This document shows positions 11,213 to 47,595 of a DNA stretch of 64,000 nucleotides, piece after piece. A model generated the notes under the pieces. It had not been told where the DNA came from. It worked only from the letters and a program-made list of their open reading frames with translations, and did not search any database. The DNA comes from Tannerella forsythia (GTDB lineage: Bacteria; Bacteroidota; Bacteroidia; Bacteroidales; Tannerellaceae), in NCBI RefSeq assembly GCF_001006485.1, contig NZ_JUET01000078.1, forward strand, positions 35,143 through 99,142, written 5' to 3'. The stretch's first letter is position 1, and every line of letters starts with the position of its first letter. A program made the position numbers and the translations under genes.

Positions 11213-15201
<3,989 letters not shown>

Positions 15202-32783: not shown

Positions 32784-33131
32784 TCACGTTTTATAATCTG
32801 TTATTCCTAACCGGTTACCCGATGGATCCTCAAACTCGACGGCCCAACCTGTTTGGATATGGAAAGGCTCGGAAAGGAATCGGACGCCTCTTTCTTTCAT
32901 CTTGGCATACTCAACCGCCACATCTTCTACCTCTATCCACAAAGCAGGTTGGGCATCCGGGAATCGTGTGGTATCCCTTAGGATAAGTGCCGGTTCGTCG
33001 TCTCCTATACGATAGGCGATCATGCCCATAGAGGAGAAATCAAACTTCACGGCTAAACCCAATACATCGTCATAGAAGTGTTTTGTCGCTTCAAAATCCT
33101 TTGCAGGGAAAAAATAATTATCTGTCTTCAT
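32784..33131 (-). CDS. VOC-family (glyoxalase/bleomycin-resistance-like) protein
   Basis: 115 aa with a beta-alpha-beta-beta-beta module pattern (HFYDDVLGL...ALWIEVEDV...FEDPSGNRL). Confidence 0.7.
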   Translation of the reverse strand: MKTDNYFFPAKDFEATKHFYDDVLGLAVKFDFSSMGMIAYRIGDDEPALILRDTTRFPDAQPALWIEVEDVAVEYAKMKERGVRFLSEPFHIQTGWAVEFEDPSGNRLGITDYKT

Positions 33132-33163
33132 AAGGATATAATAAGATGGCGTAAACTCGTAAA

Positions 33164-33745
33164 CTATATTTTCTCTACGAGTACCGTGTGCCCGTTCAGG
33201 ACGGCGGTCACGCGGATGGGAGCTTCGTTAGGCAGGCGCTCGCCGTCGGTCATGGCGTCATATTCGCGGATGGCACCGCGGACGCTGACTTGCACTTTAC
33301 CTTCGCCCGTGCGTGCGGCCGGGATGGTCAGGTAGACCGCCCCTTTGCAGCCGACAAGGGCTTCCGGCTCAATGGTGCCCGACTGCTGCATGCCGCTCAT
33401 CCATTTAAACAGGTACATCACGGCGGCTACGAGCAGCACACCCACCACCACGCCGCCGACGAGTATCAGCGAAGTGTTTTCGGTGGACGCGCGCAGGGCG
33501 ATGGCCGTCCAGCTGAACCCCAGCAGGAAATTGATCAGATTACGAAACGTGAAAAGTTGGAAGGGGGTCGCCTCACCCGTGCCGTCGGCAGACATATCGC
33601 CGTCGAAGTCGCCGTCAAAATTCGTTTCGGAGTCCATCCCCACAAAGGTCATGACACTTTGAATAATAAAGACCACTGAGGCAAAAATAGCGATGCCCCA
33701 AAGAGTTTGCATAAATGGATCGAGTGATCCCCACCATGTTTCCAT
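33164..33745 (-). CDS. NfeD-like membrane protein (YqiJ family), flotillin partner
   Basis: TM helices, then a C-terminal OB-fold (GCKGAVYLTIPAARTGEGKVQVSVRGAIREYDAMT). It lies upstream of the flotillin operon. Confidence 0.7.
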   Translation of the reverse strand: METWWGSLDPFMQTLWGIAIFASVVFIIQSVMTFVGMDSETNFDGDFDGDMSADGTGEATPFQLFTFRNLINFLLGFSWTAIALRASTENTSLILVGGVVVGVLLVAAVMYLFKWMSGMQQSGTIEPEALVGCKGAVYLTIPAARTGEGKVQVSVRGAIREYDAMTDGERLPNEAPIRVTAVLNGHTVLVEKI

Positions 33746-33836
33746 AATCTATTGTGTTCTTTAGGTTGTTTGTACTTTTTTTCCTGACAAATGTAAATAC
33801 AAATTCTAAAACCGCCAAAAAATTTGAGAAAAACAT

Positions 33837-36401
33837 TCAGAATGAAAATTGCATTTTCATTCTAAGTCCACGGTCAGGCGTATGAGGATGGTTACGATAA
33901 GAGAGTCGCCAGACATAATCAAGCCGGACGAGCTTAAAGATATTATCAAGTCCGCAACTGATTTCCATGTAAGGACGATCTTCCATCAGATAACTGTTTT
34001 CAGGGAAAACATAAAGTCCTTCATTACCCGGTTTCCACGGATTATTCTTGTCGCTCAGATCACCATACCATCCGCGAAAAGCAAAAACCTCGCGCAGTTG
34101 CAGGCGTTTGATGAGCGGAAGACGGTTCAGCAAAGCTCCATTCATAAAATACGTGACTTCCCACGACACAAAGCGATCATTGATAAACTCCATCGGGTCC
34201 ATCAGGGCATATGTTTCCGGTTCGATGCTGTACGATAAGTTCGCATTCGGGATGATAAGCAACGGATAAGGTACCTTATCCCATACTTTACCGGCCTGCC
34301 CGTAAAGGTCGACATACCCGAAAGGCGACATCCAGAAGCGTTTACGGATGCCAATCTCGGTGCGGTTATAATGATGGTCGGAGCCCAAGACGCCTTTTCG
34401 GGCAAAGGTATGACTGAGCGTGATGATCGGTGCATCAAGCGTAATGGGATAACGATAGTTGCGCGACTGATAGAACTTCTCGTTCTGCGCCCAGCGCAGC
34501 ACCACCTCAAGCTGTGCCGAGCGGTAATGATCGAGTGGAAGAGCCGTCACCCCGTCGGGTTGAATTTGCGCGAACGGCACATAACGTGACGCCCATTCCG
34601 TCAAGTGACGAGCCGTAATGCCATAGCCTAACCCGTTGTAATGCTCATGATAATAACCGAGTTCGGCCTTCTGCATGTAGGTAATCAGGTTGTTTTTGCG
34701 CCGCTTAAGCATCATAAACACATTATCTGCATTCGTATAAAGGTAATGCTGCCCGATCTGATTGATGTCATAGCGATATTCGGCACGCACATAATGGAAC
34801 GGATACTCTTTACGAAAACTTCGTTTATCGTTGAACGAATATTCAACCAGCAAATCCCCTTTGAATTTTTCGTCGCCCGCGCCGTAAGCCAGATAACCAT
34901 CCACAAAGAAACGTCGGCTAAGATTCGTCGTAGTCGTTCCGCCGAAGCGATATCGTGCCCCTTCGAGCGCATTACCGCTGATAAAGGTGTTCACCGGCCC
35001 AAATTCGACCGGGCTGTTCGTTTCCCGGGGCTGCACATACCCGTTGATCAAAGCGCCCACGATCTTTTCCGTCCAGAAAAAAGCAGGCACGGCGCGCAGT
35101 TGTGCCATCATCTTCTCGACCGAGGTCTGGGTAATCTCTTTCTCGTTCTCCCGATGTCCCTGCCAATATTCGTCCGAACGTTTGCGGGCATCTTCCGTTT
35201 CCATCACGGGATTATTCTCTCGAAAGACCGTGATATCTTCGGGAGGATCGAACGAATGATCGCGATAAAGACAAATGCGGCGGGCATACGTTCCTTTACT
35301 TTTAGCGTTCAGCTTAAATTCGACGGTAATATCATTTTTCGTCATCAGCCGCGTGCCATCATCTGCACGTATAAAATCCTGTTCGATCCGCATAAAATCT
35401 ACAAAATTGAGGTTAATGTGCCGCGGCACATTCAGCTTCACCCGTTTGACAAAGAAAGTCGAGTCGAGGGGGATATAAAGATGTCCGGTAAAACCGAACG
35501 ACTCGGAGTTAAACGGCACGAACACCAGATCGACACACGGTTCACCCTCTACCGTTACGGTGTCCGACAAGTAATACTTATAGTAGAGCGGACCAAATGA
35601 AGCGAGCGGACTGATAAAGCGATTCAAAAACAACGGGATATTGTCTTGAAAAAGGTCTATCTCCCTGAACACTTCCTCGATAAACTGTTTGACCCCGTCT
35701 TCCGAAAAGATTTCGATCAGTCCGGCACGTTTCACCCCCTGTACGACTTTACGTTCCGCAGTCGGCGATTTTCGATAATACGTCTTCTCGATCCGTTCTT
35801 CGTTGTAAAGCGGCAAAATCGGTTTGCCCGATACCCGAGACGTATCGATGTAATTGAAAATAAAATCGATCTGTTTGTAACGTTTTTTCTTACGTGCCTC
35901 TTCCTCGTTAAAGTCATTTTTGGCCAAAATCTTCTGGTCGTACGTGCTATAGTGATAATAATCATGTTGGCGAGGATCATTGACTGTACGCCGACTTATC
36001 ACCTTTTCAACAAATGTCACCGCCGGGTTCTTTTTTCTGGAATATTTTTCTTTTTCAGGCTTGACAACAATATCGGACAACGCATAAGATATTGGTTTCA
36101 TCCGGACTGTTACATTGTTTATTCCATTTCTTTTCAACGGAAGTTCAACCTCTTCATACCCCAGAAATGAAACATGTAATACGTTTTCGGAAGAAGTGAC
36201 TTGTAAGGAGAAATGGCCTCTGTTGTCCGTCACCGTGCCGATCGTCGTTCCTTTCAACATGACCGATACAGCAGGCATAGCTTCACGGGTTAATGAATCT
36301 TTGACAAATCCTTCTACACGGATCGTATATTGTGCAACCCCCTTTCCCGCCCCAAACAAGAAACATAACAAAAGGAGACATAGCATGCTTTTCAGTTTCA
36401 T
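33837..36401 (-). CDS. CarboxypepD_reg-like domain plus DUF5686-family protein, secreted or outer membrane
   Basis: Signal peptide, then the N-terminal YTIRVEGFVKDSLTREAMPAVSVMLKGTTIGTVTDNRGHFSL (carboxypeptidase regulatory-like domain). The remaining ~750 aa are predicted beta-rich and end in F. Confidence 0.6.
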   Translation of the reverse strand: MKLKSMLCLLLLCFLFGAGKGVAQYTIRVEGFVKDSLTREAMPAVSVMLKGTTIGTVTDNRGHFSLQVTSSENVLHVSFLGYEEVELPLKRNGINNVTVRMKPISYALSDIVVKPEKEKYSRKKNPAVTFVEKVISRRTVNDPRQHDYYHYSTYDQKILAKNDFNEEEARKKKRYKQIDFIFNYIDTSRVSGKPILPLYNEERIEKTYYRKSPTAERKVVQGVKRAGLIEIFSEDGVKQFIEEVFREIDLFQDNIPLFLNRFISPLASFGPLYYKYYLSDTVTVEGEPCVDLVFVPFNSESFGFTGHLYIPLDSTFFVKRVKLNVPRHINLNFVDFMRIEQDFIRADDGTRLMTKNDITVEFKLNAKSKGTYARRICLYRDHSFDPPEDITVFRENNPVMETEDARKRSDEYWQGHRENEKEITQTSVEKMMAQLRAVPAFFWTEKIVGALINGYVQPRETNSPVEFGPVNTFISGNALEGARYRFGGTTTTNLSRRFFVDGYLAYGAGDEKFKGDLLVEYSFNDKRSFRKEYPFHYVRAEYRYDINQIGQHYLYTNADNVFMMLKRRKNNLITYMQKAELGYYHEHYNGLGYGITARHLTEWASRYVPFAQIQPDGVTALPLDHYRSAQLEVVLRWAQNEKFYQSRNYRYPITLDAPIITLSHTFARKGVLGSDHHYNRTEIGIRKRFWMSPFGYVDLYGQAGKVWDKVPYPLLIIPNANLSYSIEPETYALMDPMEFINDRFVSWEVTYFMNGALLNRLPLIKRLQLREVFAFRGWYGDLSDKNNPWKPGNEGLYVFPENSYLMEDRPYMEISCGLDNIFKLVRLDYVWRLSYRNHPHTPDRGLRMKMQFSF

Positions 36402-36555
36402 CTTAATGTTCTAATGACATGATTCGTGCAAAAGTCGTTTTTTTCTCCGAAAAACAAAAATCTATTTCACCTATATTCTGTTCATTCTATCTTTTTGTAT
36501 CGCAGACAGCGCTTTCTTGTGATAACTGTTTTATCTTTGCGCCTCATTTTAACAG

Positions 36556-38226
36556 GTGAAGATGGATTGGTTGAACGGTTTATTTGTAGAACACTCCCCC
36601 ATGCAGGCAGTGGTTGTGCTTTCACTCATCGTTGCGGTAGGATTGGCATTGGGTAAAATACATATCGGTGGAATATCCTTGGGAGTTACTTTCGTCTTTT
36701 TTACAGGTATTTTAGCCGGGCATTTCGGGCTTTCCATAGATGATAAAATGCTGGCTTATGCTGAAAGCTTCGGATTAGTCATTTTTATCTACTCTCTCGG
36801 GTTACAGGTCGGTCCGGGTTTCTTTAATTCGTTTCGTAAAGAAGGGATCATGCTCAATATGCTATCGATGGCGCTTATCTTAATCGGAAGCGGGTTGACC
36901 GTTCTGCTATCGCATCTGACAGAGGTATCGTTACCGGATATGGTTGGTATTTTTTGCGGAGCCACGACCAACACACCGGCCTTGGGAGCGGCACAGCAGA
37001 CCTTAAAACAGATCGGACTGGACAGCAACATCCCTGCTTTAGGCTGCGCCGTGGCTTATCCTTTAGGGGTGGTCGGGGTGATTTTTGCAATCTTACTCAT
37101 CCGGAAAACACTCGTTCGTGAGGAGCTACTGAACAACGTTGAAAAGGATGATTTAAAAAAAGTATATGTAGCCGCTTTTCAAGTGCATAATCCGGCGGTC
37201 TTTGAAAAAAGTGTCAAGGAAATTGTTCGGATGAGTGATCTGAAATTTATCATCTCACGTTTATGGAGAGACGGGCATGTAAGCATTCCAACGTCGGAAA
37301 AAATCTTGAAAGAGAATGACAGATTATTGGTTATCACATCGGAAAAAGATGTGCAAGCCTTAACGTTCCTGTTCGGTCAGCAGGAAAAGACGGACTGGAA
37401 CAAGGAGGATATCGACTGGAATGCTATTGATACGGAGTTAGTTTCAAAACGTATTGTGGTGACTCGTGCAGCGTTGAACGGCAAAAAATTAGGTTCTCTC
37501 CGTTTACGCAATCATTATGGAATCAATATCAGTCGTGTTTTTCGCTCAGGGGTGGAGTTGCTTGCCACTCCCGAATTGGTGCTCCAGTTAGGAGACCGGT
37601 TGACGGTAGTGGGCGAGGCTGCAGCGATCCGAAACGTAGAGCAGGTATTGGGGAATGCCGTCAAAGATCTGGAAGAGCCCAACCTCGTCGTGATTTTTAT
37701 CGGTCTCGTTTTGGGGCTGGCTTTAGGATCTGTGCCGTTTTCATTTCCGGGCATCGCTACACCGGTGAAATTGGGTTTAGCGGCAGGTCCTATTATCGTC
37801 GGCATTTTACTGGGCACATTCGGTCCCCGCATACACATGATTACTTACACAACTCGCAGTGCCCATCTGATGCTTCGTGCGATCGGTCTTTCCATGTACC
37901 TGGCATGTCTAGGGTTGGACGCGGGCACACACTTCTTCGAAACGGTGTTTCGCCCCGAAGGGCTTTTGTGGATTGTGATCGGCGCAGGGTTAACCCTTAT
38001 ACCTACCATTATCGTAGGAGTCGTTGCTTTAAAAGTCATGAAGATCGACTTTGGGACGGTTTCGGGCATGTTGTGCGGAAGTATGGCTAATCCGATGGCA
38101 TTAAGCTACGTCAATGAAACGATATCCGGAGACAATCCTTCGATTGCTTATGCCACGGTTTATCCGTTAGGCATGTTTGCACGAGTCATCCTTGTGCAGA
38201 TACTGTTGATGTGCTTATTGGGATAA
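36556..38226 (+). CDS. Putative transporter of the YidE/YbjL (AspT-like) family with two TrkA-C (RCK_C) domains
   Basis: Two homologous 5-6 TM halves separated by two cytoplasmic TrkA-C-like domains (RIVVTRAALNGKKLGSLRL...). Confidence 0.75.
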   Translation: MKMDWLNGLFVEHSPMQAVVVLSLIVAVGLALGKIHIGGISLGVTFVFFTGILAGHFGLSIDDKMLAYAESFGLVIFIYSLGLQVGPGFFNSFRKEGIMLNMLSMALILIGSGLTVLLSHLTEVSLPDMVGIFCGATTNTPALGAAQQTLKQIGLDSNIPALGCAVAYPLGVVGVIFAILLIRKTLVREELLNNVEKDDLKKVYVAAFQVHNPAVFEKSVKEIVRMSDLKFIISRLWRDGHVSIPTSEKILKENDRLLVITSEKDVQALTFLFGQQEKTDWNKEDIDWNAIDTELVSKRIVVTRAALNGKKLGSLRLRNHYGINISRVFRSGVELLATPELVLQLGDRLTVVGEAAAIRNVEQVLGNAVKDLEEPNLVVIFIGLVLGLALGSVPFSFPGIATPVKLGLAAGPIIVGILLGTFGPRIHMITYTTRSAHLMLRAIGLSMYLACLGLDAGTHFFETVFRPEGLLWIVIGAGLTLIPTIIVGVVALKVMKIDFGTVSGMLCGSMANPMALSYVNETISGDNPSIAYATVYPLGMFARVILVQILLMCLLG

Positions 38227-38285
38227 TGATGATTTCGTTATTTGCAGGAAAAGCGGTATCTTTGCCGACCCAAAATAAACATACT

Positions 38286-38981
38286 ATGGATTATGCAATT
38301 ATCGCTGCCGGTGAGGGTTCACGCCTCGTTCAGGAAGGGATGAAGACTCCCAAACCCTTGCTCCGCTTACACGGAGTCCCCTTGATCGACCGGCTGATTC
38401 ATCTTTTTTTGAGGCATCACGCCACGTCGATCAGTATCATCGTGAATGAAGAGATGACGGAAGTGCAGGCGCACCTGAAAGCTCTTTCGCTGCCGGTACC
38501 GTTTCATTTATTGGTACAATCCACCCCCAGCTCGATGCATAGTTTTCATGCATTAAGCCGCTTCCTGACCGGCAATCGGTTTTGTCTGACCACGGTCGAT
38601 ACGATTTTTCAGGAAGATGAATTTACACAATATATCCGTACATTCGAGCAGACATCGACTTTGGATGGCTTGATGGCCGTTACAAGTTTCGTAGACGATG
38701 AGAAGCCGCTCTACGTAAAGACAGACGATGATTACATGATCCAAGCTTTCCTCGATGCGACAGACGAACCCTGCCGTTATGTGTCCGGAGGAATTTACTG
38801 CCTGAGAAATACTGTGTTACCGGCGTTGGATCAGGCAATGGAACAAGGAATCTCACGGATGCGCAACTATCAGCGCCTGTTGGTGAGCGAAGGTTTGCAT
38901 TTGAAGGCCTATCCGTTTCATAAAATTATTGATATCGATCATATCAGTGATCTGGCTAAGGCAGAAACATTTCTGGCATGA
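38286..38981 (+). CDS. Nucleotidyltransferase (sugar/alcohol-phosphate cytidylyl- or nucleotidyl-transferase fold)
   Basis: MDYAIIAAGEGSRLVQEGMKTPKPLLRLHGVPLIDRLI carries the G-x-G-x-R and KPLL signature of GlmU/LicC/IspD/IPCT-type NTP transferases. The ORF-track start at 38211 overlaps the transporter. Confidence 0.7.
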   Translation: MDYAIIAAGEGSRLVQEGMKTPKPLLRLHGVPLIDRLIHLFLRHHATSISIIVNEEMTEVQAHLKALSLPVPFHLLVQSTPSSMHSFHALSRFLTGNRFCLTTVDTIFQEDEFTQYIRTFEQTSTLDGLMAVTSFVDDEKPLYVKTDDDYMIQAFLDATDEPCRYVSGGIYCLRNTVLPALDQAMEQGISRMRNYQRLLVSEGLHLKAYPFHKIIDIDHISDLAKAETFLA

Positions 38982-39020
38982 TACGTACTTCTTCGGATAG
39001 GGTTTTAATAATCAATCAAC

Positions 39021-39878
39021 ATGAATACGCATAAGGTAGCCGGTATTCGCAGGGAAAACCGTTTTTCACCGAATCATGTAGGAAACGATGCCGCCATTTT
39101 TTCATTGACGGCAGAGCATCTGCACCGTATGGGATGCACGGTGAACGAATACATCGAATCGGACCTGTTAGTTCGGGACATCGATGCCAATATCGTTTTT
39201 AACATGGCACGTGAACGACAGATGGTACGTAAATTGCAACGTATGGAAGACGAAGGATGCAAGGTCATCAATTCGGGCTACGGTATCGAGAATTGCACCC
39301 GTGAGAAGATGACGCGTCTTTTGCTATCTGCCGGAATAGCCCATCCGAAGAGCCTGATACTTAAAACGGACGACGATCCGACGGAGGCGCTCGAGGAGGC
39401 CGGCCTGCATCATTGCTGGATCAAACGCGGAGATTTCCATGCCATCCATCGTGAAGACGTGACCTATGTTCGTCATCGCGAAGAGGCCAAAGGTATTTTT
39501 CATGAGTTTGCCGTGCGAGGAATTGAAACCGCAGTGATAAATGAACATCTGGTCGGCGATCTGGTCAAATTTTACGGGGTGTACGGAACGGACTTCTTCT
39601 ATTGGTTTTATCCGTTCGAGATGCATCACGGAAAGTTCGGGCTTGAACAAATCAACGGTGCAGCCAAGGGATTTTCATTCGATCTGAATTATTTACGAAA
39701 AATGTGCGATCAGGCAGCCCAGGTGTTGAACGTCCATATTTATGGTGGCGACTGCATTGTATCGGAAGACGGCACGGTACGACTGATCGACTTCAACGAC
39801 TGGCCGAGTTTTGCACCTTGTCGTGATGAAGCGGCACCCCATATTGCCGAATGTATTTACCGTTTCATGAAACAATGA
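39021..39878 (+). CDS. ATP-grasp fold enzyme (RimK/ITPK-like)
   Basis: Pattern KVINSGYGIENCTREKMTRLLLSAGIAHPKS...WIKRGDFHA...AVINEHLVGDLVKFYGV...IYGGDCIVSEDGTVRLIDFNDWPS, consistent with the ATP-grasp central and C domains. Confidence 0.55.
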   Translation: MNTHKVAGIRRENRFSPNHVGNDAAIFSLTAEHLHRMGCTVNEYIESDLLVRDIDANIVFNMARERQMVRKLQRMEDEGCKVINSGYGIENCTREKMTRLLLSAGIAHPKSLILKTDDDPTEALEEAGLHHCWIKRGDFHAIHREDVTYVRHREEAKGIFHEFAVRGIETAVINEHLVGDLVKFYGVYGTDFFYWFYPFEMHHGKFGLEQINGAAKGFSFDLNYLRKMCDQAAQVLNVHIYGGDCIVSEDGTVRLIDFNDWPSFAPCRDEAAPHIAECIYRFMKQ

Positions 39879-40798
39879 TGACACGCAACTCACAGACAAA
39901 GGATTTGGAGTCCACACTCAAATCGTTGGATACGGAAGAGTTTATTGATATACATTTTTATCGTCCGCTGGGCTATCGATGGGCCTTACTGTTCGAGCGG
40001 ATGGGTATATCGCCGAATGCCGTTACCGTAGCGGGAATCTTTATCGGGATTGCCGCCGGTATTTGTTTTTACTACCCTTCGCCGACAATCAATGTGATCG
40101 GGATGTTACTCCTTGTCTGGGCCAATATGTACGACAGCGCCGACGGTCAGCTGGCGCGTATGACCGGGCAGAAATCACCGTTGGGAAGGATCCTCGACGG
40201 CTTCTGCGGCGATGTATGGTTCTTTGCCATCTATGTCGCCATCTGTTTGCGACTCATGCCGGTTTGGGGCGGATGGATCTGGCTAATGGCTATCGTTACG
40301 GGAGTCTTCCACGGCAAACAAGCCGCCATGGCCGATTACTACCGGAACATCCATCTCCTTTTTCTGAAAGGAAAAGCCGGCAGCGAGTTGTCACACTCAC
40401 CGGCCGTAAAGGCGAATTTCGAGAAGATGACATGGAGACATGATTTTATCTATAAACTCTTTGAGATGTTTTACCTGCGTTACACACGCGGACAGGAACG
40501 ATGGACGCCGCGCTTTCAGGAGATGATGGACATCGTCCGGAACGATTATCACGGAGAAGCGCCGGAATGGTTTCGCAAAGCTTTCCGCACGAAAAGTCTG
40601 CCGTTGATGAAATATACGAATATGCTTTCGTTCAATACACGTGTTATTGCGTTATTCGTAAGCCTTTTGATCGATCAGCCGTGGCTTTATTTCGTTTTCG
40701 AACTGACGGTGCTCAATGTCATGCTCGTTTACATGGTGACGAAGCATGAACGTATTTGCACCGACTTTACCCCCTCATTAAAGAACCAACAGCAATGA
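39875..40798 (+). CDS. CDP-alcohol phosphatidyltransferase-family protein
   Basis: Canonical D-x2-D-G-x2-A-R...G-x3-D-x3-D motif (DSADGQLARMTGQKSPLGRILDGFCGD) and multiple TM helices. The ATG at 39875 overlaps the upstream stop (ATGA). An alternative start is 39851. Confidence 0.8.
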   Translation: MMTRNSQTKDLESTLKSLDTEEFIDIHFYRPLGYRWALLFERMGISPNAVTVAGIFIGIAAGICFYYPSPTINVIGMLLLVWANMYDSADGQLARMTGQKSPLGRILDGFCGDVWFFAIYVAICLRLMPVWGGWIWLMAIVTGVFHGKQAAMADYYRNIHLLFLKGKAGSELSHSPAVKANFEKMTWRHDFIYKLFEMFYLRYTRGQERWTPRFQEMMDIVRNDYHGEAPEWFRKAFRTKSLPLMKYTNMLSFNTRVIALFVSLLIDQPWLYFVFELTVLNVMLVYMVTKHERICTDFTPSLKNQQQ

Positions 40799-41526
40799 TC
40801 AACATAAAAACTATTCAAGGGATCGTGTTCGACTACGGCGGTACGATCGACAGTAACGGATTGCATTGGGCGGAAGTGATCTGGCAGGCTTATCAGGCGG
40901 AGGCTGTTCCCGTCACGAAAGACGTTTTCCGGCAGGCTTACGTGTATGCCGAGCGGACGATGGGGCAACTTCCTTTGGTAAAACCGGAGCATACGTTTGC
41001 CGATATGATGCGTATTAAGACCGATTTGCAAATCGAGTGGCTTCGTGAGAATCGGTATTTGTCGGACATGGAAGCCTCACGCGAATTGAAACGAAGCCTG
41101 GCCGGGCGATGCTATACATTCGCTGCGCGGTCGACCGCTGCGGCGCGCCCTGTTATCGAGGTGCTGGCCGACAGTTATCCGCTGGTCATGGTTTCCAATT
41201 TTTACGGAAACCTTCGGACGGTATTGAAAGATTTCCGTCTCGATGCGTATTTCCCGCTCCTTATCGAGTCAGCGACGGTGGGCGTCCGCAAACCCGATCC
41301 TCAAATCTTCCGGTTGGGAATCAGCGCCCTGAACATACCGGCTGCTCATATCGCTGTGATCGGAGACTCGTACGATAAGGATATCGTTCCTGCCGCCGCT
41401 GTGGGTTGCCGTACGGTCTGGCTCAAAAACATCGGTTGGAAAGAATATGCCGGTAACGAGACGGCTGACGCTGTAATTTCGGACTTTTCGGAGCTGAAAA
41501 CGGTTTTTAATTTGTCATCATCTTAA
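40795..41526 (+). CDS. HAD-superfamily hydrolase (subfamily IA-like)
   Basis: Motif I variant VFDYGGTID, motif II MVSN, motif III GVRKPDPQIF, motif IV VIGDSYDKD. Its start overlaps the upstream stop (ATGA). Confidence 0.75.
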   Translation: MINIKTIQGIVFDYGGTIDSNGLHWAEVIWQAYQAEAVPVTKDVFRQAYVYAERTMGQLPLVKPEHTFADMMRIKTDLQIEWLRENRYLSDMEASRELKRSLAGRCYTFAARSTAAARPVIEVLADSYPLVMVSNFYGNLRTVLKDFRLDAYFPLLIESATVGVRKPDPQIFRLGISALNIPAAHIAVIGDSYDKDIVPAAAVGCRTVWLKNIGWKEYAGNETADAVISDFSELKTVFNLSSS

Positions 41527-41550
41527 AAAACATATACCTTTGTCCACCGG

Positions 41551-42006
41551 ATGAAAAGTCCTCGGATGAAGCATAAACGACATATCATGCAATGGGTCGT
41601 ATGGATAAGCAGTGTATTCTTCCTGTTTTCGGCGACGGCACCACATCATCATCACGATGGTGGGAAAGTTTGTTTTATGTCTTTTTGGGGAGACGGAGCA
41701 AAACATGCCTGCTGTCATACGTGCGGCGAAACCTCTCCGAACAGCCATCTTCATCACCATCCTTTACAGACATGCGATGATTGTGGGGCGACCGTGTCCG
41801 TCACCCTGACACAGGATCATGATAGCCATGCGGCTGTGACGCCTGTTCTCATTCCTTTCTTCGTATTACTGAATTATCTCTATCCGGCCGAATTGGAACA
41901 AGCCGGTCTGTGTTTCTCCCGAAAACATCTCTCCTTTTATATCGAAGCGCTTCGCGACACGTGGATTACACGTGCTTCGGGACTGCGCGCCCCGCCTCTT
42001 TTTTAA
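41551..42006 (+). CDS. Hypothetical His/Cys-rich small membrane protein (possible metal-binding accessory protein)
   Basis: One N-terminal TM helix (WVVWISSVFFLFSATA), then the HHHHDGG, CCHTCGE and HLHHHP motifs, and DDCG. It sits directly upstream of czcBAC. The start is ambiguous (41551 or 41587). Confidence 0.45.
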   Translation: MKSPRMKHKRHIMQWVVWISSVFFLFSATAPHHHHDGGKVCFMSFWGDGAKHACCHTCGETSPNSHLHHHPLQTCDDCGATVSVTLTQDHDSHAAVTPVLIPFFVLLNYLYPAELEQAGLCFSRKHLSFYIEALRDTWITRASGLRAPPLF

Positions 42007-42081
42007 TGAACCGAAAATCATTTCAGGCTGATTGCAGACGTACTATATTCAGCGATTGTTCATTCATTAAAAAAGTCAATT

Positions 42082-43320
42082 ATGAAACATCGATCATTTA
42101 TTTTATTGTGGGCAGTTTGCGCCTGCATACTTGCCGGGTGTGGCGGCTCATCCACACAAAAAGACGAACATCAACACGCTCATGATGAACATTCACATCA
42201 TGATCATAAACATGAGCATGACCATAAACACGACCATGACCATGAAGGGGAGGAGCATGATCACGACTATAAAGAAGACACCCATGAAGCCATAGATAAC
42301 GAGATTATTTTTACAGCCGAACAGGCCAAGGCCGTAGGTCTGGAAGTCAGCACCGCAGAGCCCGGTCTGTTTTGTCAGGTAATCAAAGCCGGCGGACAAA
42401 TCCTGTCGGCACAAGGTGACGAGGTGACGATAGCCGCGACATCGAACGGTATCCTTTCTTTTTCCGGTTCTGCAGTCGAGGGAGTGGCGGTACGTGCCGG
42501 CGAAGCGATCGCATCGATCTCGGCCAAAGATATTGCCAATGGTGATCCGGTGGCGCAGGCCCGGATTACGTATGAAACCGCCGAGAAAGAATTCCGACGC
42601 GCCGAAGAGTTAGTGAAGGATCAAATCATCTCGACCCAGGAATTCGAGCAGGTTCGCCTCCGTTACGAAACGGCGAAGACCGCCTATCGGGCGTTTGCCG
42701 GCAAAGCGGGAGTGCACGGCGTAAGGCTTACGACACCCATCGCAGGATACCTCAAAAACCGGTTTGTCAATCAGGGAGAGTTTGTGGCAGTCGGCCAGCC
42801 TGTCGCCACCGTTTCACAGAACCGGCGGTTACAATTGCGTGCCGAGGTTCCTGAAAAATATTTCAGAGACTTACAGCACATCGGGAGTGCGAATTTCAAG
42901 GTATCCTACAGCGACCGGATATACAAACTGAGCGAACTGAAAGGGCGGTTGCTGTCGTTCGGGAAGTCGGCAGGACAAGCCTCGTTCTATATTCCCGTCA
43001 CTTTCGAGTTCGACAATATCGGCGATATCATGCCCGGCGCTTACGCCGAAGTGTATCTGCTTTCCACTCCGCGTCCCGATGTGATAACCTTGCCGATAAA
43101 GGCTGTAACGGAGGAGCAAGGGGTTCATTTTGTGTATGTTCAACTCGACGAAGAAGGTTACGTAAAAAGAGAAGTTACCTTAGGAGCTGACGACGGTGAG
43201 CGCGTGCAGATTCTTTCCGGGATACATGTGGGAGATCGCGTCGTGACGCAGGGTGTTTACCAGCTGAAGCTGGCGGCCAATGCAAGCGTGATTCCGGAAG
43301 GTCACAGTCACAGTCATTAA
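42082..43320 (+). CDS. Efflux RND periplasmic adaptor subunit (CzcB/CusB-like) with a His-rich N-terminal extension
   Basis: Lipoprotein signal (ILAGC), then His-rich HQHAHDEHSHHDHKHEHDHKHDHDHEGEEHDHDY, an MFP barrel-sandwich/beta-barrel core and the C-terminal HSHSH. Confidence 0.8.
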   Translation: MKHRSFILLWAVCACILAGCGGSSTQKDEHQHAHDEHSHHDHKHEHDHKHDHDHEGEEHDHDYKEDTHEAIDNEIIFTAEQAKAVGLEVSTAEPGLFCQVIKAGGQILSAQGDEVTIAATSNGILSFSGSAVEGVAVRAGEAIASISAKDIANGDPVAQARITYETAEKEFRRAEELVKDQIISTQEFEQVRLRYETAKTAYRAFAGKAGVHGVRLTTPIAGYLKNRFVNQGEFVAVGQPVATVSQNRRLQLRAEVPEKYFRDLQHIGSANFKVSYSDRIYKLSELKGRLLSFGKSAGQASFYIPVTFEFDNIGDIMPGAYAEVYLLSTPRPDVITLPIKAVTEEQGVHFVYVQLDEEGYVKREVTLGADDGERVQILSGIHVGDRVVTQGVYQLKLAANASVIPEGHSHSH

Positions 43321-43333
43321 AAACCGGACGGAT

Positions 43334-46300
43334 ATGCTGAATAATATTATACGATTTTCATTGAATAATCGGCTGATCGTGCTTGCCGCAGCTGTATTAT
43401 TGCTCTTTGCCGGTACGTATACGGCCATGAACATGGACGTGGATGTCTTCCCCGACCTGAATGCTCCGACCGTAGTCGTGATGACCGAGGCAAAAGGGAT
43501 GGCTCCCGAGGAAGTAGAGCGGTTGGTCACTTTTCCGGTAGAGACGGCCGTCAACGGAGCGACGGATGTGCGTCGCGTACGTTCATCGTCGACAACCGGC
43601 TTCTCGGTCGTATGGGTCGAGTTTAACTGGGGGACGGATATTTACCGTGCGCGCCAGATCGTATCGGAAAAGCTGGCTATGATCGGCGAATCTTTACCGC
43701 CGAACGCAGGAAGACCGACGCTGGGGCCGCAATCGTCTATTCTCGGCGAGATGATGATTATCGGCCTGACGGCCGATACGACCTCGATGGAGGAACTGCG
43801 AACGATCGCCGACTGGACCATTCGTCCGCGTCTGTTGTCTACGGGCGGAGTAGCGCAAGTAGCCGTATTGGGAGGCGATATCAGGGAATATCAGGTGTTG
43901 CTGAATCCTGAAAAGATGAAGCATTACGGGATCGGTCTGGACGAGGTGATGAAAGTAGTTCGCGACATGAATCAAAACGCGTCGGGCGGGGTATTATACG
44001 AATACGGAAACGAGTACATCATCCATGGCGTGATCTCCACCAACGACGTCGATGCCCTTTCGAAAGCCGTATTGAAACGCGTGGGCGAGGTACCGCTCTT
44101 GCTGGGCGATGTGGCCGATGTACGTATCGGCGCGAAGATGCCGAAACTCGGCGTAGCATCGCACCGCGCCAAGCCGGCCGTATTGCTGACGGTCACGAAA
44201 CAGCCGCATACGAGCACGCTCGATCTGACGCGGAAGCTCGACGCTTCCATCGCCGAATTGCAAAAAACGATGCCCCGTGATGTGCAGGTGGCAACCGATA
44301 TCTTCCGACAGTCACGATTTATCGAAAGTTCGATCGGCAACATTCGGCGATCGCTGATCGAAGGGGCTGTTTTCGTCGTGATCATCCTGTTTATCTTCCT
44401 GATGAATGCACGAACCACCCTGATCTCGCTCGTCACCATTCCTTTGTCGATCCTCGTTGCCATCGTCGTGTTACGATTGATGGGGCTGACGATTAACACG
44501 ATGAGTATCGGAGGGATGGCCATTGCGATCGGCTCACTCGTTGACGATGCGATCGTCGACGTCGAAAACGTCTACAAACGTCTGCGTGAGAACCGGCAGA
44601 AGCCCGAGGCCGAGCGGCGCGGAGTGATTGCCGTCGTGTTCGATGCCTCGCAGGAGGTGCGGATGCCAATCCTGAACTCAACCTTTATTATCGTCGTCAG
44701 CTTCGTGCCGTTGTTCTTCCTTTCGGGTATGGAGGGACGGATGCTGGCGCCGTTGGGCGTGGCTTTTATTGTGGCGCTGTTTGCCTCTACTCTCGTAGCG
44801 TTGACGCTGACCCCCGTGTTATGCAGTTTTCTGCTCACGGCAGACCGCCAGACAAAGAAAAACAAAGAGCCGTTCGTGGTGCGTCATCTCAAGGCGGCTT
44901 ACGAACGCGCTTTAGACCGGACGCTGACCCATCGGAAGGCTTCGCTCGGCATTACGGGTGGGATCGCACTCGTGGCGCTCGTCGCCTTTTTCATGTTGGG
45001 AAACAGTTTTCTGCCGTCGTTCAACGAAGGTTCGTTTACGATCAACGTAAGTACACTGCCGGGCATCTCGCTCGAAGAGTCGGACAAGGTTGGTCGCCGG
45101 GCGGAAGAGTTACTGCTTTCGATTCCGGAGATACGGACGGTGGCACGTAAGACCGGACGCGCCGAGTTAGACGAGCATGCGTTGGGGGTCAATGTCTCTG
45201 AAATCGAAGCGCCGTTCGAGCTTTCCGGACGGTCGAAAGAAGAGGTCGTCGAGGAAGTGCGGGAGAAGCTGAAAACGCTTTCGGGAGTAAATATTGAGAT
45301 CGGACAACCCATCTCGCACCGTATCGACGCGATGTTATCAGGCACACGAGCCAATATTGCCATCAAGCTGTTCGGTACGGACCTGAACCGTATGTTCGCG
45401 CTCGGCAACCGGATTAAGACGAGTATCGCCGATATCGAGGGGATTGCCGACCTGAACGTAGAGCAGCAGATCGAACGTCCTCAGATCAAAATCGAGCCGA
45501 AACGCGAGATGCTCGCCAAATACGGCATCCCCCCTTCCGAGTTCGGAGAGTATGTATCGGTTATGCTCGGTGGCGAGGTCGTTTCGCAGGTGTATGAAGG
45601 CAATCGCTCCTTCGATCTGACCGTAAGGGTCAATGACGAGAGCCGGAGCGGCATCGACCGGATCGGTGATCTGATCATCGATGCCGACGGGCGGAAAATA
45701 CCGCTGAGCTACGTGGCCGACATTGTTTCGTCCGGCGGGCCGAATACGATCAGCCGCGAGAACGTCAGTCGCAAGATCGTCGTTTCGGCCAATGTGTCGG
45801 GCGGGGACCTGCGGGGTATCGTCCACCGGATACGCGAACGGATCGATGAGCAGATCGTGCTTCCCGAAGGGTATCACATCGAATACGGCGGACAGTTCGA
45901 GAGCGAGCAGGCTGCATCGCGCACGCTGCTCGTCGCCTCTATCCTGTCTATTTTCGTTATCTTCCTGCTGCTTTACAACCAGTTTAGGAGCATGAAGCAG
46001 TCGGCCGTCGTACTGTTGAATCTTCCGTTGGCACTCATCGGCGGCATCTTTGCCATCTTCTTTGCCGACCGAATCATCAGCATCCCCGCCATCATCGGAT
46101 TCATTTCGCTGTTCGGCATTGCCACACGCAACGGCATGCTTCTGATCGATCGATACAACGATCTGAAACGCAGTGGGCTGTCATTGATTGAGTGTGTAAG
46201 GCAAGGTTCATCAGACCGGCTTAACCCCATTCTGATGACGGCGCTTACCTCGGCGCTGGCGCTCGTTCCGCTGGCCTTGGGAGGCGATCTGCCGGGTAAC

Positions 46301-46417
46301 GAAATTCAGAGCCCGATGGCTGTCGTGATTCTGGGCGGATTGTTGACCTCTACGCTGTTAAACGGCTTTATCATCCCGATTATGTATCTTTTAATCCATA
46401 AAAAGCAAGACGTATGA
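43334..46417 (+). CDS. CusA/CzcA-family heavy-metal efflux RND transporter
   Basis: 1027 aa with the 12-TM RND architecture. The N-terminal MLNNIIRFSLNNRLIVLAAAV is typical of CzcA/CusA. Confidence 0.9.
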   Translation: MLNNIIRFSLNNRLIVLAAAVLLLFAGTYTAMNMDVDVFPDLNAPTVVVMTEAKGMAPEEVERLVTFPVETAVNGATDVRRVRSSSTTGFSVVWVEFNWGTDIYRARQIVSEKLAMIGESLPPNAGRPTLGPQSSILGEMMIIGLTADTTSMEELRTIADWTIRPRLLSTGGVAQVAVLGGDIREYQVLLNPEKMKHYGIGLDEVMKVVRDMNQNASGGVLYEYGNEYIIHGVISTNDVDALSKAVLKRVGEVPLLLGDVADVRIGAKMPKLGVASHRAKPAVLLTVTKQPHTSTLDLTRKLDASIAELQKTMPRDVQVATDIFRQSRFIESSIGNIRRSLIEGAVFVVIILFIFLMNARTTLISLVTIPLSILVAIVVLRLMGLTINTMSIGGMAIAIGSLVDDAIVDVENVYKRLRENRQKPEAERRGVIAVVFDASQEVRMPILNSTFIIVVSFVPLFFLSGMEGRMLAPLGVAFIVALFASTLVALTLTPVLCSFLLTADRQTKKNKEPFVVRHLKAAYERALDRTLTHRKASLGITGGIALVALVAFFMLGNSFLPSFNEGSFTINVSTLPGISLEESDKVGRRAEELLLSIPEIRTVARKTGRAELDEHALGVNVSEIEAPFELSGRSKEEVVEEVREKLKTLSGVNIEIGQPISHRIDAMLSGTRANIAIKLFGTDLNRMFALGNRIKTSIADIEGIADLNVEQQIERPQIKIEPKREMLAKYGIPPSEFGEYVSVMLGGEVVSQVYEGNRSFDLTVRVNDESRSGIDRIGDLIIDADGRKIPLSYVADIVSSGGPNTISRENVSRKIVVSANVSGGDLRGIVHRIRERIDEQIVLPEGYHIEYGGQFESEQAASRTLLVASILSIFVIFLLLYNQFRSMKQSAVVLLNLPLALIGGIFAIFFADRIISIPAIIGFISLFGIATRNGMLLIDRYNDLKRSGLSLIECVRQGSSDRLNPILMTALTSALALVPLALGGDLPGNEIQSPMAVVILGGLLTSTLLNGFIIPIMYLLIHKKQDV

Positions 46418-47595
46418 AAAAATATATGATAGCAGGACTTGCCGTGCTGCTGACCATCGTGGCGCAAGCGCAGACGACGATGGACGAGGTATTGCGTCAA
46501 GTGGAAACGAATAACCGCGAGTTGCAGGCCGCCCGCCAGTATTACGAGTTGCAGTTGCTCGAATCGAAAAGTGAGAATAACCTGCCCGATCCATCGGTGA
46601 GTTATTCGCATCAATACGGCAATCGTGCGGAGATGGGCGTACAGGGTGAGCTGGTCGCGTCGCAGTCGTTCGAGTTCCCCACGGTTTACGGGCAACGCAG
46701 CAAACTGACGACCGTTCGCCAACAACTCTTCGCCTCGCAATACACCGGTGAGCGTCGTCAGGTATTGCTCAATGCCCAAGAGGTCTGCCTCGATTTAGTG
46801 TGGCTTAACCGGCGTCGACAGCTCCTTCGCGAACGGCGACGCGACGCCGAGCGGCTGGCGGAGCTGTATGACGAGCGTTTGAAGAAAGGCAATGCCAATA
46901 TACTGGAGACGAATAAAATCAAGCTCGAGCTCTTAAACGTAAAGACGGAAGAACGGCTGAACGAGACGGAACGCGAAGGCAAGTTGCGCGAATTGGCCAC
47001 GTTGAACGGCGGACACCCCGTCGCATTCACCGATACGGTTTACCCCTCGCCTGCCGAACCGTCCTCGTGGGACGCGTTACGTGACGAGGCGCTGGCCGCC
47101 GACGCCACATTACAGACGTTGCAATACCGGCAGGCCGAAGCGCAGCGGCAGATCGGCGTAAGCCGCGCTCAGGGGCTGCCCGGACTGGAGCTGGGCTATC
47201 GGCTGAACACGGCCACCGGTGGAGATCGATACAACGGCTTCGTCGTGGGAATGAGCATCCCGCTCTTTTCAAACCGCCATCAGGTGAAGAAGGCGCACCG
47301 TCAAAGTCATTATGTAGAGTTGCAACGTGAGAGCGCTGCGGTACAGGCCAAGAACCGCCTGATGCAGCTCTATCACCGGTTGCAGGTACTCCGCGCTTCG
47401 ATGGACGAATTTGATACCGTACTCAAAAATCAGGACAACCTGAACCTGCTGAATAAAGCGTTGCAAGCCGGACAAATCTCCATGATCGAGTATTTCGTCA
47501 GCATCGGCACGCTATATCAGAGCACCGACTATCATCTGCAACTGCAAAGCGAATACCACAAAGTGCTGGCCGCGATTTACAGCTACAAACTTTGA
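46414..47595 (+). CDS. TolC-family outer membrane factor (CzcC-like)
   Basis: Signal peptide, two OEP repeats with coiled coils, and a start that overlaps the czcA stop. Confidence 0.8.
   Translation: MKKYMIAGLAVLLTIVAQAQTTMDEVLRQVETNNRELQAARQYYELQLLESKSENNLPDPSVSYSHQYGNRAEMGVQGELVASQSFEFPTVYGQRSKLTTVRQQLFASQYTGERRQVLLNAQEVCLDLVWLNRRRQLLRERRRDAERLAELYDERLKKGNANILETNKIKLELLNVKTEERLNETEREGKLRELATLNGGHPVAFTDTVYPSPAEPSSWDALRDEALAADATLQTLQYRQAEAQRQIGVSRAQGLPGLELGYRLNTATGGDRYNGFVVGMSIPLFSNRHQVKKAHRQSHYVELQRESAAVQAKNRLMQLYHRLQVLRASMDEFDTVLKNQDNLNLLNKALQAGQISMIEYFVSIGTLYQSTDYHLQLQSEYHKVLAAIYSYKL

Follow-up and report, generated by a model that had tools for sequence, protein, structure and literature searches.

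Host-associated Bacteroidales have inositol sphingolipids among their major membrane lipids, and in Bacteroides thetaiotaomicron these lipids influence fitness in the gut, resistance to antimicrobial peptides and the expression of capsules (PMC9246714). The B. thetaiotaomicron cluster, BT_1522-BT_1526, encodes inositol-phosphate synthase (MIPS), phosphatidylinositol-phosphate (PIP) synthase (PIPS), a PIP phosphatase and inositol-phosphodihydroceramide (PI-DHC) synthase. A second arrangement, the B. vulgatus-type "putative alternative inositol lipid cluster", comprises an NTP-transferase (BVU_RS13095), a phosphatidyltransferase (BVU_RS13105) and a HAD protein (BVU_RS13115), and adjoins the MIPS gene in B. 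vulgatus, Prevotella and Parabacteroides (Heaver et al. 2022, PMC9246714). Although neither has the BT-type genes, both B. vulgatus and P. veroralis produce PI-DHC (PMC9246714). The scheme proposed for the alternative cluster, from CDP-inositol via phosphoinositol-diacylglycerol (PI-DAG) to PI-DHC, was drawn up in silico with the functions stated as unconfirmed (PMC9246714), and a 2023 review still describes the Prevotella/Phocaeicola/Parabacteroides-type pathway as predicted and uncharacterised (PMC10191378). Here we analyse a cassette of four genes, encoding an NTP-transferase, an ATP-grasp protein, a CDP-alcohol phosphotransferase (PT) and a HAD hydrolase, in a 64-kb stretch of Tannerella forsythia DNA (the window, to which all coordinates without a locus label refer). 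The cassette belongs to this known, predicted pathway, and the T. forsythia copy is a salvage variant without MIPS.

T. forsythia contains two phospho-myo-inositol dihydroceramides, which make up ~25% of its membrane lipid (Megson et al. 2015, PMC4587543) and are labelled from exogenous inositol only (PMC4587543). Its genome was reported to have neither MIPS nor an inositol monophosphatase, and to encode a BEPIS homologue, Tanf_07760 (Megson et al. 2015, PMC4587543). The IPCT required for CDP-inositol was written to be absent, and candidates for an inositol kinase or transporter could not be identified (PMC4587543).

More distant systems share parts of this chemistry. In the description given by Megson et al. 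(PMC4587543), the MIPS-IPCT-BEPIS operon of Rhodothermus marinus (Jorge et al. 2015) combines, like the window, a cytidylyltransferase with a CDP-alcohol phosphotransferase; as described there it has neither an ATP-grasp nor a HAD gene, and the acceptor of BEPIS is dialkylether glycerol, in contrast to the dihydroceramide or diacylglycerol (DAG) presumed here. In IPCT/DIPPS (A. fulgidus 4mnd; NF041135) the two activities are fused, the acceptor is soluble and the product is a thermoprotective solute, whereas the window genes are separate and the PT signature is shifted to D-x4-D. The Kennedy pathway (choline/ethanolamine kinase, CCT/ECT, CPT1/CEPT1) and LicA/LicC follow the same kinase, cytidylyltransferase, phosphotransferase logic with a lipid acceptor, and kinase-nucleotidyltransferase fusions occur both in systems of that type and in cassettes of the window type. 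The Kennedy kinase has a protein-kinase-like choline kinase fold, whereas in the cassette the kinase candidate is an ATP-grasp protein, the head group would be inositol and a HAD gene is added.

The window cassette corresponds to the alternative inositol lipid cluster

A first-pass annotation of the window had proposed five genes, the cassette and a YidE-family transporter gene upstream of it, as an operon for an undescribed CDP-alcohol pathway. The ORF read-out contained all five on the same strand (Table 1). The gaps of 59 nt (YidE to NTP-transferase) and 39 nt (NTP-transferase to ATP-grasp) follow from the gene coordinates, and the sequence itself shows the two ATGA overlaps, at 39875-39878 and 40795-40798, in agreement with the annotation. 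The NTP-transferase ORF is open back to a GTG at 38211, and in an alignment of 73 homologues conservation runs from ATG 38286 onward. The ATG starts of the NTP-transferase (M-x-Y-A-I-I-A-A-G) and of the HAD protein (K-G-I-I-F-D-Y-G-G-T) coincide with the onset of conservation in the alignments; the true start of YidE is probably ATG 36562.

The window ATP-grasp protein is identical to T. forsythia WP_060828369.1/BAR50170.1 in 283 of 285 residues, and the 90%-identity cluster of the window PT contains BAR50171.1, the accession next after BAR50170.1. Megablast against plasmids gave no match for 38286-41526, and a plasmid origin of the cassette was rejected: the locus is part of the T. forsythia chromosome. 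No Rfam RNA families were detected in 33000-43000, and no MIPS in the 64 kb (tblastn, no match at E<1), as the first-pass annotation had stated for inositol-phosphate synthase.

The connection with the alternative cluster is provided by P. chinchillae DSM 29073. According to Supplementary Table 5 of Heaver et al. (PMC9246714), this strain and P. distasonis carry all three genes without MIPS, and the P. chinchillae proteins match the three BVU proteins with E-values of 1e-85 to 1e-118. The same strain is a locus of our survey (L008), with a co-linear cassette and proteins 71% (ATP-grasp), 71% (PT, P0185) and 60% (HAD) identical to those of the window. With P. chinchillae DSM 29073 common to the published table and our survey, we identify the window cassette with the alternative cluster; the orthology to the B. 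vulgatus genes is transitive, through the shared strain. Three of the four genes thus belong to a cluster already described by Heaver et al. (PMC9246714), and the claim of an undescribed pathway has to be given up.

The two descriptions share the same three families in the same order, and the published cluster is widespread in Bacteroides, Prevotella and Parabacteroides. The window differs in that MIPS is absent, YidE stands in its place and an ATP-grasp gene is recognised. MIPS adjacency, a feature of the alternative cluster, is thus missing from the window; since Supplementary Table 5 lists MIPS-less carriers, such adjacency is usual but not obligatory. RS13100, the locus tag between the B. 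vulgatus NTP-transferase and phosphatidyltransferase genes, is not discussed by Heaver et al. 2022 (PMC9246714), and the word "grasp" does not occur in the main text or the text-form supplements of that paper. The text-form supplements, species survey table included, do not contain T. forsythia either (PMC9246714). The searchable literature yielded no later work on the alternative pathway, on Tanf_07745 to Tanf_07770 or on bacterial ATP-grasp inositol kinases.

Table 1. Features of the window in and around the cassette
Feature	Position	Strand	Remarks
YidE-family transporter	36556-38226	+	AAE family; two Asp-Al_Ex halves and TrkA_C domains
NTP-transferase	38286-38981	+	231 aa; predicted CTP:inositol-phosphate cytidylyltransferase, product CDP-inositol
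ATP-grasp protein	39021-39878	+	285 aa; orphan; predicted inositol or inositol-phosphate kinase feeding the cytidylyltransferase
CDP-alcohol phosphotransferase (PT)	39875-40798	+	307 aa; polytopic membrane protein
HAD-IA hydrolase	40795-41526	+	243 aa; motif I FDYGGT; predicted phosphatase
TATCTTTG	36532-36539	+	upstream of YidE; putative promoter element from its match to the TAnnTTTG consensus
Second TATCTTTG (-7-like)	38257-38264	+	in the YidE-NTP-transferase gap, 21 nt before the NTP-transferase ATG; candidate separate promoter of the cassette
TACCTTTG (-7-like)	41535-41542	+	between the HAD stop and the next gene; probable 3' boundary of the unit
CarboxypepD_reg + DUF5686 protein (BT_1527-like)	33837-36401	-	divergent from YidE; PF18939 121 bits, PF13715 59 bits
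DUF6769 protein, HlyD-type adaptor, RND pump, outer-membrane factor (OEP)	41551-47595		downstream of the cassette

Conservation of the cassette and its link to inositol

The family of the ATP-grasp protein is large (6029 matches at 90% clustering, 1020 clusters at 50% identity), and its gene is carried by at least 588 species genomes. With this gene as anchor, the best 80 of the at least 588 species-genome loci were surveyed together with the window (81 in total); partner genes were located by tblastn and MIPS was called by Pfam PF07994/PF01658. PT was found near the anchor in 80 of the 81 loci, HAD in 78 and the NTP-transferase in 75, and the order was nearly always kept, so that NTP-transferase, ATP-grasp, PT and HAD formed a co-linear unit in ~75 of the 81 Bacteroidales loci. 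It is these four genes that make up the conserved unit, and their arrangement is far beyond chance.

A MIPS gene lies within 10 kb of the cassette in 52 loci. Other neighbours are PdxA (49/81), DUF5686 (4/81) and YidE (2/81). The commonest order is PdxA > NTP > ATP-grasp > PT > HAD > MIPS; in some Tannerellaceae MIPS is at the other end (MIPS > NTP > ATP-grasp > PT > HAD). Since MIPS is positioned nearby in two thirds of the loci, the cassette is tied to inositol. The first-pass annotation had suggested co-occurrence of the genes and their distance to MIPS as a check; the IPCT/DIPPS-type logic that it assumed (cytidylyltransferase, PT and HAD phosphatase) is borne out. We regard it as highly likely that the cassette makes inositol lipids via CDP-inositol.

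The NTP_transferase, CDP-OH_P_transf and Hydrolase domains of the cassette proteins pass the Pfam cut-offs, and none of the four enzymes reaches the cut-off of a curated NCBIfam equivalog. The NTP-transferase contains the motifs AAGEGSRL (GxGxR) and KPLL, as annotated, and scores 47.6 bits with PF00483 and 41.3 bits with PF12804. It matches the IPCT half of the Thermococcales IPCT/DIPPS model NF041135 weakly over its full length (32.5 bits, residues 4-229); the PT scores 22 bits with this bifunctional model, whose cut-off is 580 bits, and the two genes are separate. The match to the IPCT structure 2xme in the Protein Data Bank (PDB) is likewise weak (E 0.0087).

The surveyed loci showed some further features. 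Where PdxA is directly upstream of the cassette (49 of the 81 loci; upstream flanks of L023-L084), it is often preceded by RlmN, SurA-like and MetK genes. This order probably reflects conserved synteny of housekeeping genes, but phosphorylated polyols are substrates of PdxA-family dehydrogenases. A Metallophos phosphoesterase gene and a gene for a 212-aa protein follow HAD on the same strand in L001 (12631-14044) and in similar Parabacteroides/Massilibacteroides loci; the pair occurs 3' of HAD in several Tannerellaceae, whether or not MIPS is present. In oral Tannerella sp. OT808-type loci (L114 3714-4811, L115 7511-8608) a Fic/DUF4172 gene overlaps the HAD stop by 4 nt and may be co-transcribed with the cassette. 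L096 (1105-7467) contains MIPS-NTP-ATP-grasp-PT as a head-to-head inverted duplicate, possibly an assembly artefact or a genuine duplication. Two contigs of metagenome-assembled genomes labelled Parachlamydiaceae and [Ruminococcus] lactaris (L039, L066) carry a Bacteroidales-type cassette in Dysgonomonas or Muribaculaceae synteny, and these labels are probably due to bin contamination.

The ATP-grasp protein is a candidate kinase

In six 50%-identity representative protein clusters the NTP-transferase and the ATP-grasp protein are fused in frame, and the fusion is also present in eight assembled metagenome loci (L085-L092). The fusion ORF of L086 (7836-9560) encodes 574 aa with both domains in one frame, and the N-terminal halves of the fusions are 55-58% identical to the window NTP-transferase. 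Fusions of this kind usually unite enzymes that act one after the other; LicA/LicC, HldE and Fkp are examples that pair a kinase with a nucleotidyltransferase. The fusion is the strongest functional clue to what the ATP-grasp protein may do.

Searches with the window protein against Pfam, NCBIfam and, by phmmer, the PDB gave nothing above cut-off by which it could be named. It has the hallmarks of the ATP-grasp superfamily: a three-domain fold, conserved ATP-binding lysines and an acidic/Asn metal triad. A profile built from 42 diverse family members matched PsnB in the PDB best (E 4e-5), followed by six ITPK entries (E 6e-4 to 6e-3). The profile aligned the catalytic C-terminus, with the invariant residues D244, D257 and N259, with ITPK1 and ITPK4: YGGD244…ID257FN259DWPSF is placed on FG(I/F)D…(I/V)D(I/V/L)N.(F/L)P(G/S)(Y/F) of 1z2n, 7pup and 2odt, and by this alignment the protein contains the ITPK catalytic segment G-x-D…D-x-N-x-x-P-(G/S)-(Y/F). 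We take the aligned D/D/N positions to be the metal ligands known from ITPK1 structures. In PsnB the D-x-N position is E-x-N in the same alignment.

The likeness to ITPKs has its bounds. The window protein is 16-22% identical to ITPK1/ITPK4 (PF05770; 1z2n, 2qb5, 7pup), and these enzymes act on the inositol phosphates InsP3/InsP4, whereas the expected substrate here would be inositol or InsP1. The Pfam family PF05770 (Ins134_P3_kin) did not match the window protein at an E of 1 or less, and was matched weakly by four of the 42 relatives (best E 0.058). The suggestion that the protein resembles ITPK-type kinases thus stands for its catalytic C-terminus and fails for the Pfam family.

In place of a kinase, we also considered an acyl-phosphate-forming ligase that would modify the head group or another molecule. 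The RimK-family ligase model TIGR00768 gave 27 bits, in the N-terminal part only, against a cut-off of 143.4. A kinase followed by a nucleotidyltransferase is the pattern of LicA/LicC, HldE and Fkp, and the fusion agrees with it; the catalytic strand is D-x-N as in ITPKs, not E-x-N as in PsnB. The known inositol lipids of T. forsythia contain no amino-acid, carboxylate or amide moiety that would need a ligase (PMC4587543). Despite the rank of PsnB in the profile search, a ligase is in our estimate rather improbable. We give the kinase assignment an even chance. The ATP-grasp protein would then be an overlooked and probably essential step of the pathway, most likely a kinase feeding the cytidylyltransferase.

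Variant motifs in the phosphotransferase and the HAD protein

The PT matched Pfam PF01066 with 43.2 bits (gathering cut-off 22). Its signature, D87-x2-D90-G-x2-A-R-x8-G104-x3-D108-x4-D113 (40133-40213), departs from the canonical D-x2-D-G-x2-A-R-x8-G-x3-D-x3-D: D87, D90, G91, A94, R95, G104 and D108 are present, and the last Asp is at +5. The signature as first annotated is therefore correct through D108, and its last spacing is x4 and not x3. This D-x4-D ending is a family trait, kept in 43 of 43 close homologues, in at least 90% of 76 and in 21 of 21 distant homologues; a different geometry of the acceptor may lie behind it.

Models of PIP synthase and archaetidylinositol-phosphate synthase scored the PT below their cut-offs (NF045883, 41.5 against 170 bits; NF040950, 52.3 against 180 bits; NF052561, of the BT_1523 type, 23.1 against 350 bits). 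On the last of these scores membership in the BT_1523-type cluster was rejected, as the first-pass annotation had surmised for the classical Bacteroides cluster. The B. thetaiotaomicron cluster shares with the window the PI-DHC end product and a BT_1527-like DUF5686 neighbour; its donor, CDP-DAG, and its intermediate, PIP-DAG, are unlike the window chemistry.

The best fold match of the PT is DIPPS, which uses CDP-inositol, and its best sequence matches in the PDB are the Kennedy-type enzymes CPT1/CEPT1 (E 4e-5), ahead of AF2299 and PIPS. The margins are small; taken together these matches fit a CDP-head-group donor and a lipid acceptor. We predict that the PT transfers phospho-inositol from CDP-inositol to dihydroceramide and/or diacylglycerol. 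In other loci a gene for an LPG_synthase_TM protein (PF03706, MprF-flippase-like, BT_1521-type) is inserted between PT and HAD (L086 10466-11461, L100 10496-11482), and acyltransferase genes are found inside the cassette; both kinds of gene support a membrane-lipid product. The LPG_synthase_TM insertion, which probably corresponds to the undiscussed locus tag between the B. vulgatus PT and HAD genes, is missing from the T. forsythia window.

The HAD protein scored 52.3 bits with Pfam PF00702. Its motif I, FDYGGT (F12-T17, 40828-40845), is invariant in 33 aligned homologues and at least 90% conserved in 72; the nucleophile D13, S134 of motif II, K166 of motif III and D191…D196 of motif IV are invariant in the same 33. 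The general acid at Asp+2 is replaced by Gly family-wide. The DYGGT that the first-pass annotation had singled out is thus present, not as a local oddity but as a trait of the whole HAD family (33/33). The nearest solved relatives found with the HAD profile in the PDB are generic HAD-IA proteins only, and phosphatase chemistry appears plausible yet atypical. P. veroralis has a PT-HAD fusion (Heaver et al. 2022, PMC9246714), with which three HAD roles are compatible: the protein could take a phosphate off the PT product, provide the lipid acceptor or act as an inositol monophosphatase.

The fusion also suits the published scheme, in which the NTP-transferase takes the MIPS product, the PT makes PI-DAG and the HAD protein is the PI-DHC synthase, PT and HAD being consecutive (PMC9246714). 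The 52 loci with an adjacent MIPS are in line with it. In this scheme the ATP-grasp protein would be accessory, regulatory or unrelated, which would leave without a role a gene that every locus contains and that fusions join to the NTP-transferase. The scheme cannot explain how free exogenous inositol becomes a substrate of the cytidylyltransferase in T. forsythia, where MIPS is lacking, and a soluble HAD-IA phosphatase fold without Asp+2 would be an improbable lipid head-group transferase. We therefore judge the published assignment of the steps to be unlikely for this cassette.

Another alternative gives both enzymes a constant role. The ATP-grasp protein could add a second phosphate (e.g. 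Ins3P -> Ins(1,3)P2), so that a CDP-inositol-phosphate is formed and then a lipid-P-inositol-phosphate, from which the HAD protein removes the extra phosphate, in parallel to PIPS/PIP-phosphatase and DIPPS/DIPP-phosphatase. Such a route would account for the universal presence of ATP-grasp and HAD with or without MIPS, and would give the canonical D-1 linkage without a cycle of dephosphorylation and rephosphorylation; the NTP-ATP-grasp and PT-HAD fusions would both join consecutive steps, and ITPK-type enzymes do use inositol phosphates. T. forsythia, however, would need two phosphorylations of free inositol, and the invariant positions of the ATP-grasp family include only a few basic residues, fewer than would be expected of a polyphosphate pocket. 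We hold this route to be possible but doubtful.

Proposed pathway

From the gene content, conservation, MIPS linkage, fusions, folds and motifs observed we infer each substrate and the order of the steps as follows. The ATP-grasp protein would phosphorylate myo-inositol or, in MIPS-containing relatives, maybe an inositol phosphate. The NTP-transferase would convert inositol phosphate and CTP to CDP-inositol, and the membrane-bound PT would pass phospho-inositol to a lipid alcohol. For T. forsythia we take the acceptor to be dihydroceramide, reached directly or via PI-DAG, and the products would be the inositol-phosphodihydroceramides that constitute about a quarter of its lipids. The HAD phosphatase, acting beside the PT, could strip residual phosphate from the PT product, provide the lipid acceptor from phosphatidic acid or ceramide-1-phosphate, or serve as inositol-monophosphatase in species with MIPS. 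Because MIPS has been lost, the T. forsythia cassette would be a salvage-only route for host inositol.

In this model the NTP-transferase and the ATP-grasp protein, encoded directly upstream of the PT, are candidates for the two activities that were missing in T. forsythia, IPCT and kinase. We consider it fairly probable that 38286-41526 is the T. forsythia version of a Bacteroidales Kennedy-type CDP-inositol route. The more specific proposal, that the 285-aa ATP-grasp protein represents a new bacterial family of inositol or inositol-monophosphate kinases carrying out the first step of this pathway, and that the D-x4-D PT loads dihydroceramide directly, is put forward tentatively, with somewhat less than even confidence.

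Several observations weigh against the proposed route. PsnB, the top profile match of the ATP-grasp family, is a ligase, and the weak Pfam matches of the relatives are scattered over ATPgrasp_ST (7), RimK (5) and Ins134_P3_kin (4); the protein belongs to an orphan family. The ATP-grasp gene is kept where MIPS already provides inositol phosphate, and a simple free-inositol salvage kinase therefore fails to explain its universality. Conversely, HAD is kept in the MIPS-less T. forsythia, so that dephosphorylation of the MIPS product cannot be its sole role. The CTP specificity of the NTP-transferase is a prediction only. Tanf_07760, for which Megson et al. reported homology to BEPIS, probably corresponds to the window PT. 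The searchable literature shows no assay of any cassette enzyme in any organism.

YidE, promoter-like elements and flanking genes

YidE is a bona fide member of its family: it matches NCBIfam NF003007 with 682.8 bits over residues 15-555 (cut-off 449), as well as Pfam PF06826 and PF02080. Its adjacency to the cassette is limited to the window, L004 and L005, and thus to T. forsythia and one close relative. That relative (L005) is a Tannerella sp. with an ATP-grasp protein 92% identical to that of the window. Oral Tannerella sp. OT808-type loci have no YidE, and outer-membrane beta-barrel genes are upstream instead. The order DUF5686< YidE> NTP of the window compares with DUF5686< MIPS> NTP in L015, so that YidE occupies the MIPS slot. 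In an inositol-dependent species such a placement is suggestive, but it is seen in a single lineage. Because adjacency is confined to the T. forsythia lineage, the link of YidE to the pathway is weak, and YidE was rejected as an integral member of the cassette.

TAnnTTTG is the published -7 promoter consensus of Bacteroidetes. It is enriched in the whole window, with 49 matches against 31.4 expected (none of 100 shuffles reached 49), and TATCTTTG is its commonest variant there. This pattern was used because a scan of 36300-42200 for sigma-70 promoters and intrinsic terminators, which found fewer or no more sites than in shuffles, is uninformative for Bacteroidetes. With TAnnTTTG elements before YidE, in the YidE-NTP-transferase gap and after HAD, the cassette may have its own promoter and the downstream genes may form a separate unit.

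These data bear on a further interpretation, close to that of the first-pass annotation: the T. forsythia genes would form a five-gene operon for a soluble CDP-inositol-derived solute of the di-myo-inositol-phosphate type, or for another head group (phosphoglycerol, phosphoethanolamine), with YidE as its transporter. DIPPS is the best fold match of the PT, the HAD protein could be a DIPP-type phosphatase, and YidE is on the same strand, 59 nt upstream, in the slot taken by MIPS in related Tannerellaceae (L015). The hosts, however, are mesophilic and host-associated and have documented inositol sphingolipids, which makes a compatible solute an unlikely product, and elsewhere flippase-like LPG_synthase_TM and acyltransferase genes are embedded in the cassette. 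YidE is adjacent in two of 81 loci, is missing in oral Tannerella OT808 and is separated from the cassette by a -7-like element. It is an orthologue of generic YidE, and the known substrates of its family (AAE, TC 2.A.81) are anions. We consider the solute or other head group with a dedicated transporter very improbable, and the five-gene operon remains weakly supported.

Like the window with its divergent DUF5686 gene, L005, L015 and L022 have such a gene beside the cassette, and so do 8 of 29 metagenome loci. A BT_1527 homologue is found near both types of inositol-lipid cluster (Heaver et al. 2022, PMC9246714). This neighbour is peripheral to the cassette. Downstream, the HlyD-type adaptor has a very His/Asp-rich N-terminus (HQHAHDEHSHHDHKHEHDHKHDHDH…), and metal efflux is the probable function of the set at 41551-47595, which has no connection with the cassette. 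At a distance from these genes, the window encodes a serpin of 547 aa (13558-15201; PF00079, 357 bits), plausibly a miropin-type protease inhibitor of T. forsythia.

Implications

Beyond the description by Heaver et al., the analysis contributes the constant ATP-grasp member, candidates for the enzymes missing in T. forsythia and the variant PT and HAD motifs. It adds an overlooked, universally conserved enzyme to the alternative inositol-lipid pathway. Should the ATP-grasp protein prove to be an inositol kinase, it would represent a new bacterial branch of ITPK-like enzymes and could offer a selective target in an oral pathogen that depends on inositol. If correct, the proposed route would complete the alternative inositol-lipid pathway common in gut Bacteroidales, and would account for the way in which Tannerellaceae without MIPS, among them the periodontal pathogen T. 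forsythia, use inositol from the host to make approximately a quarter of their membrane lipid.

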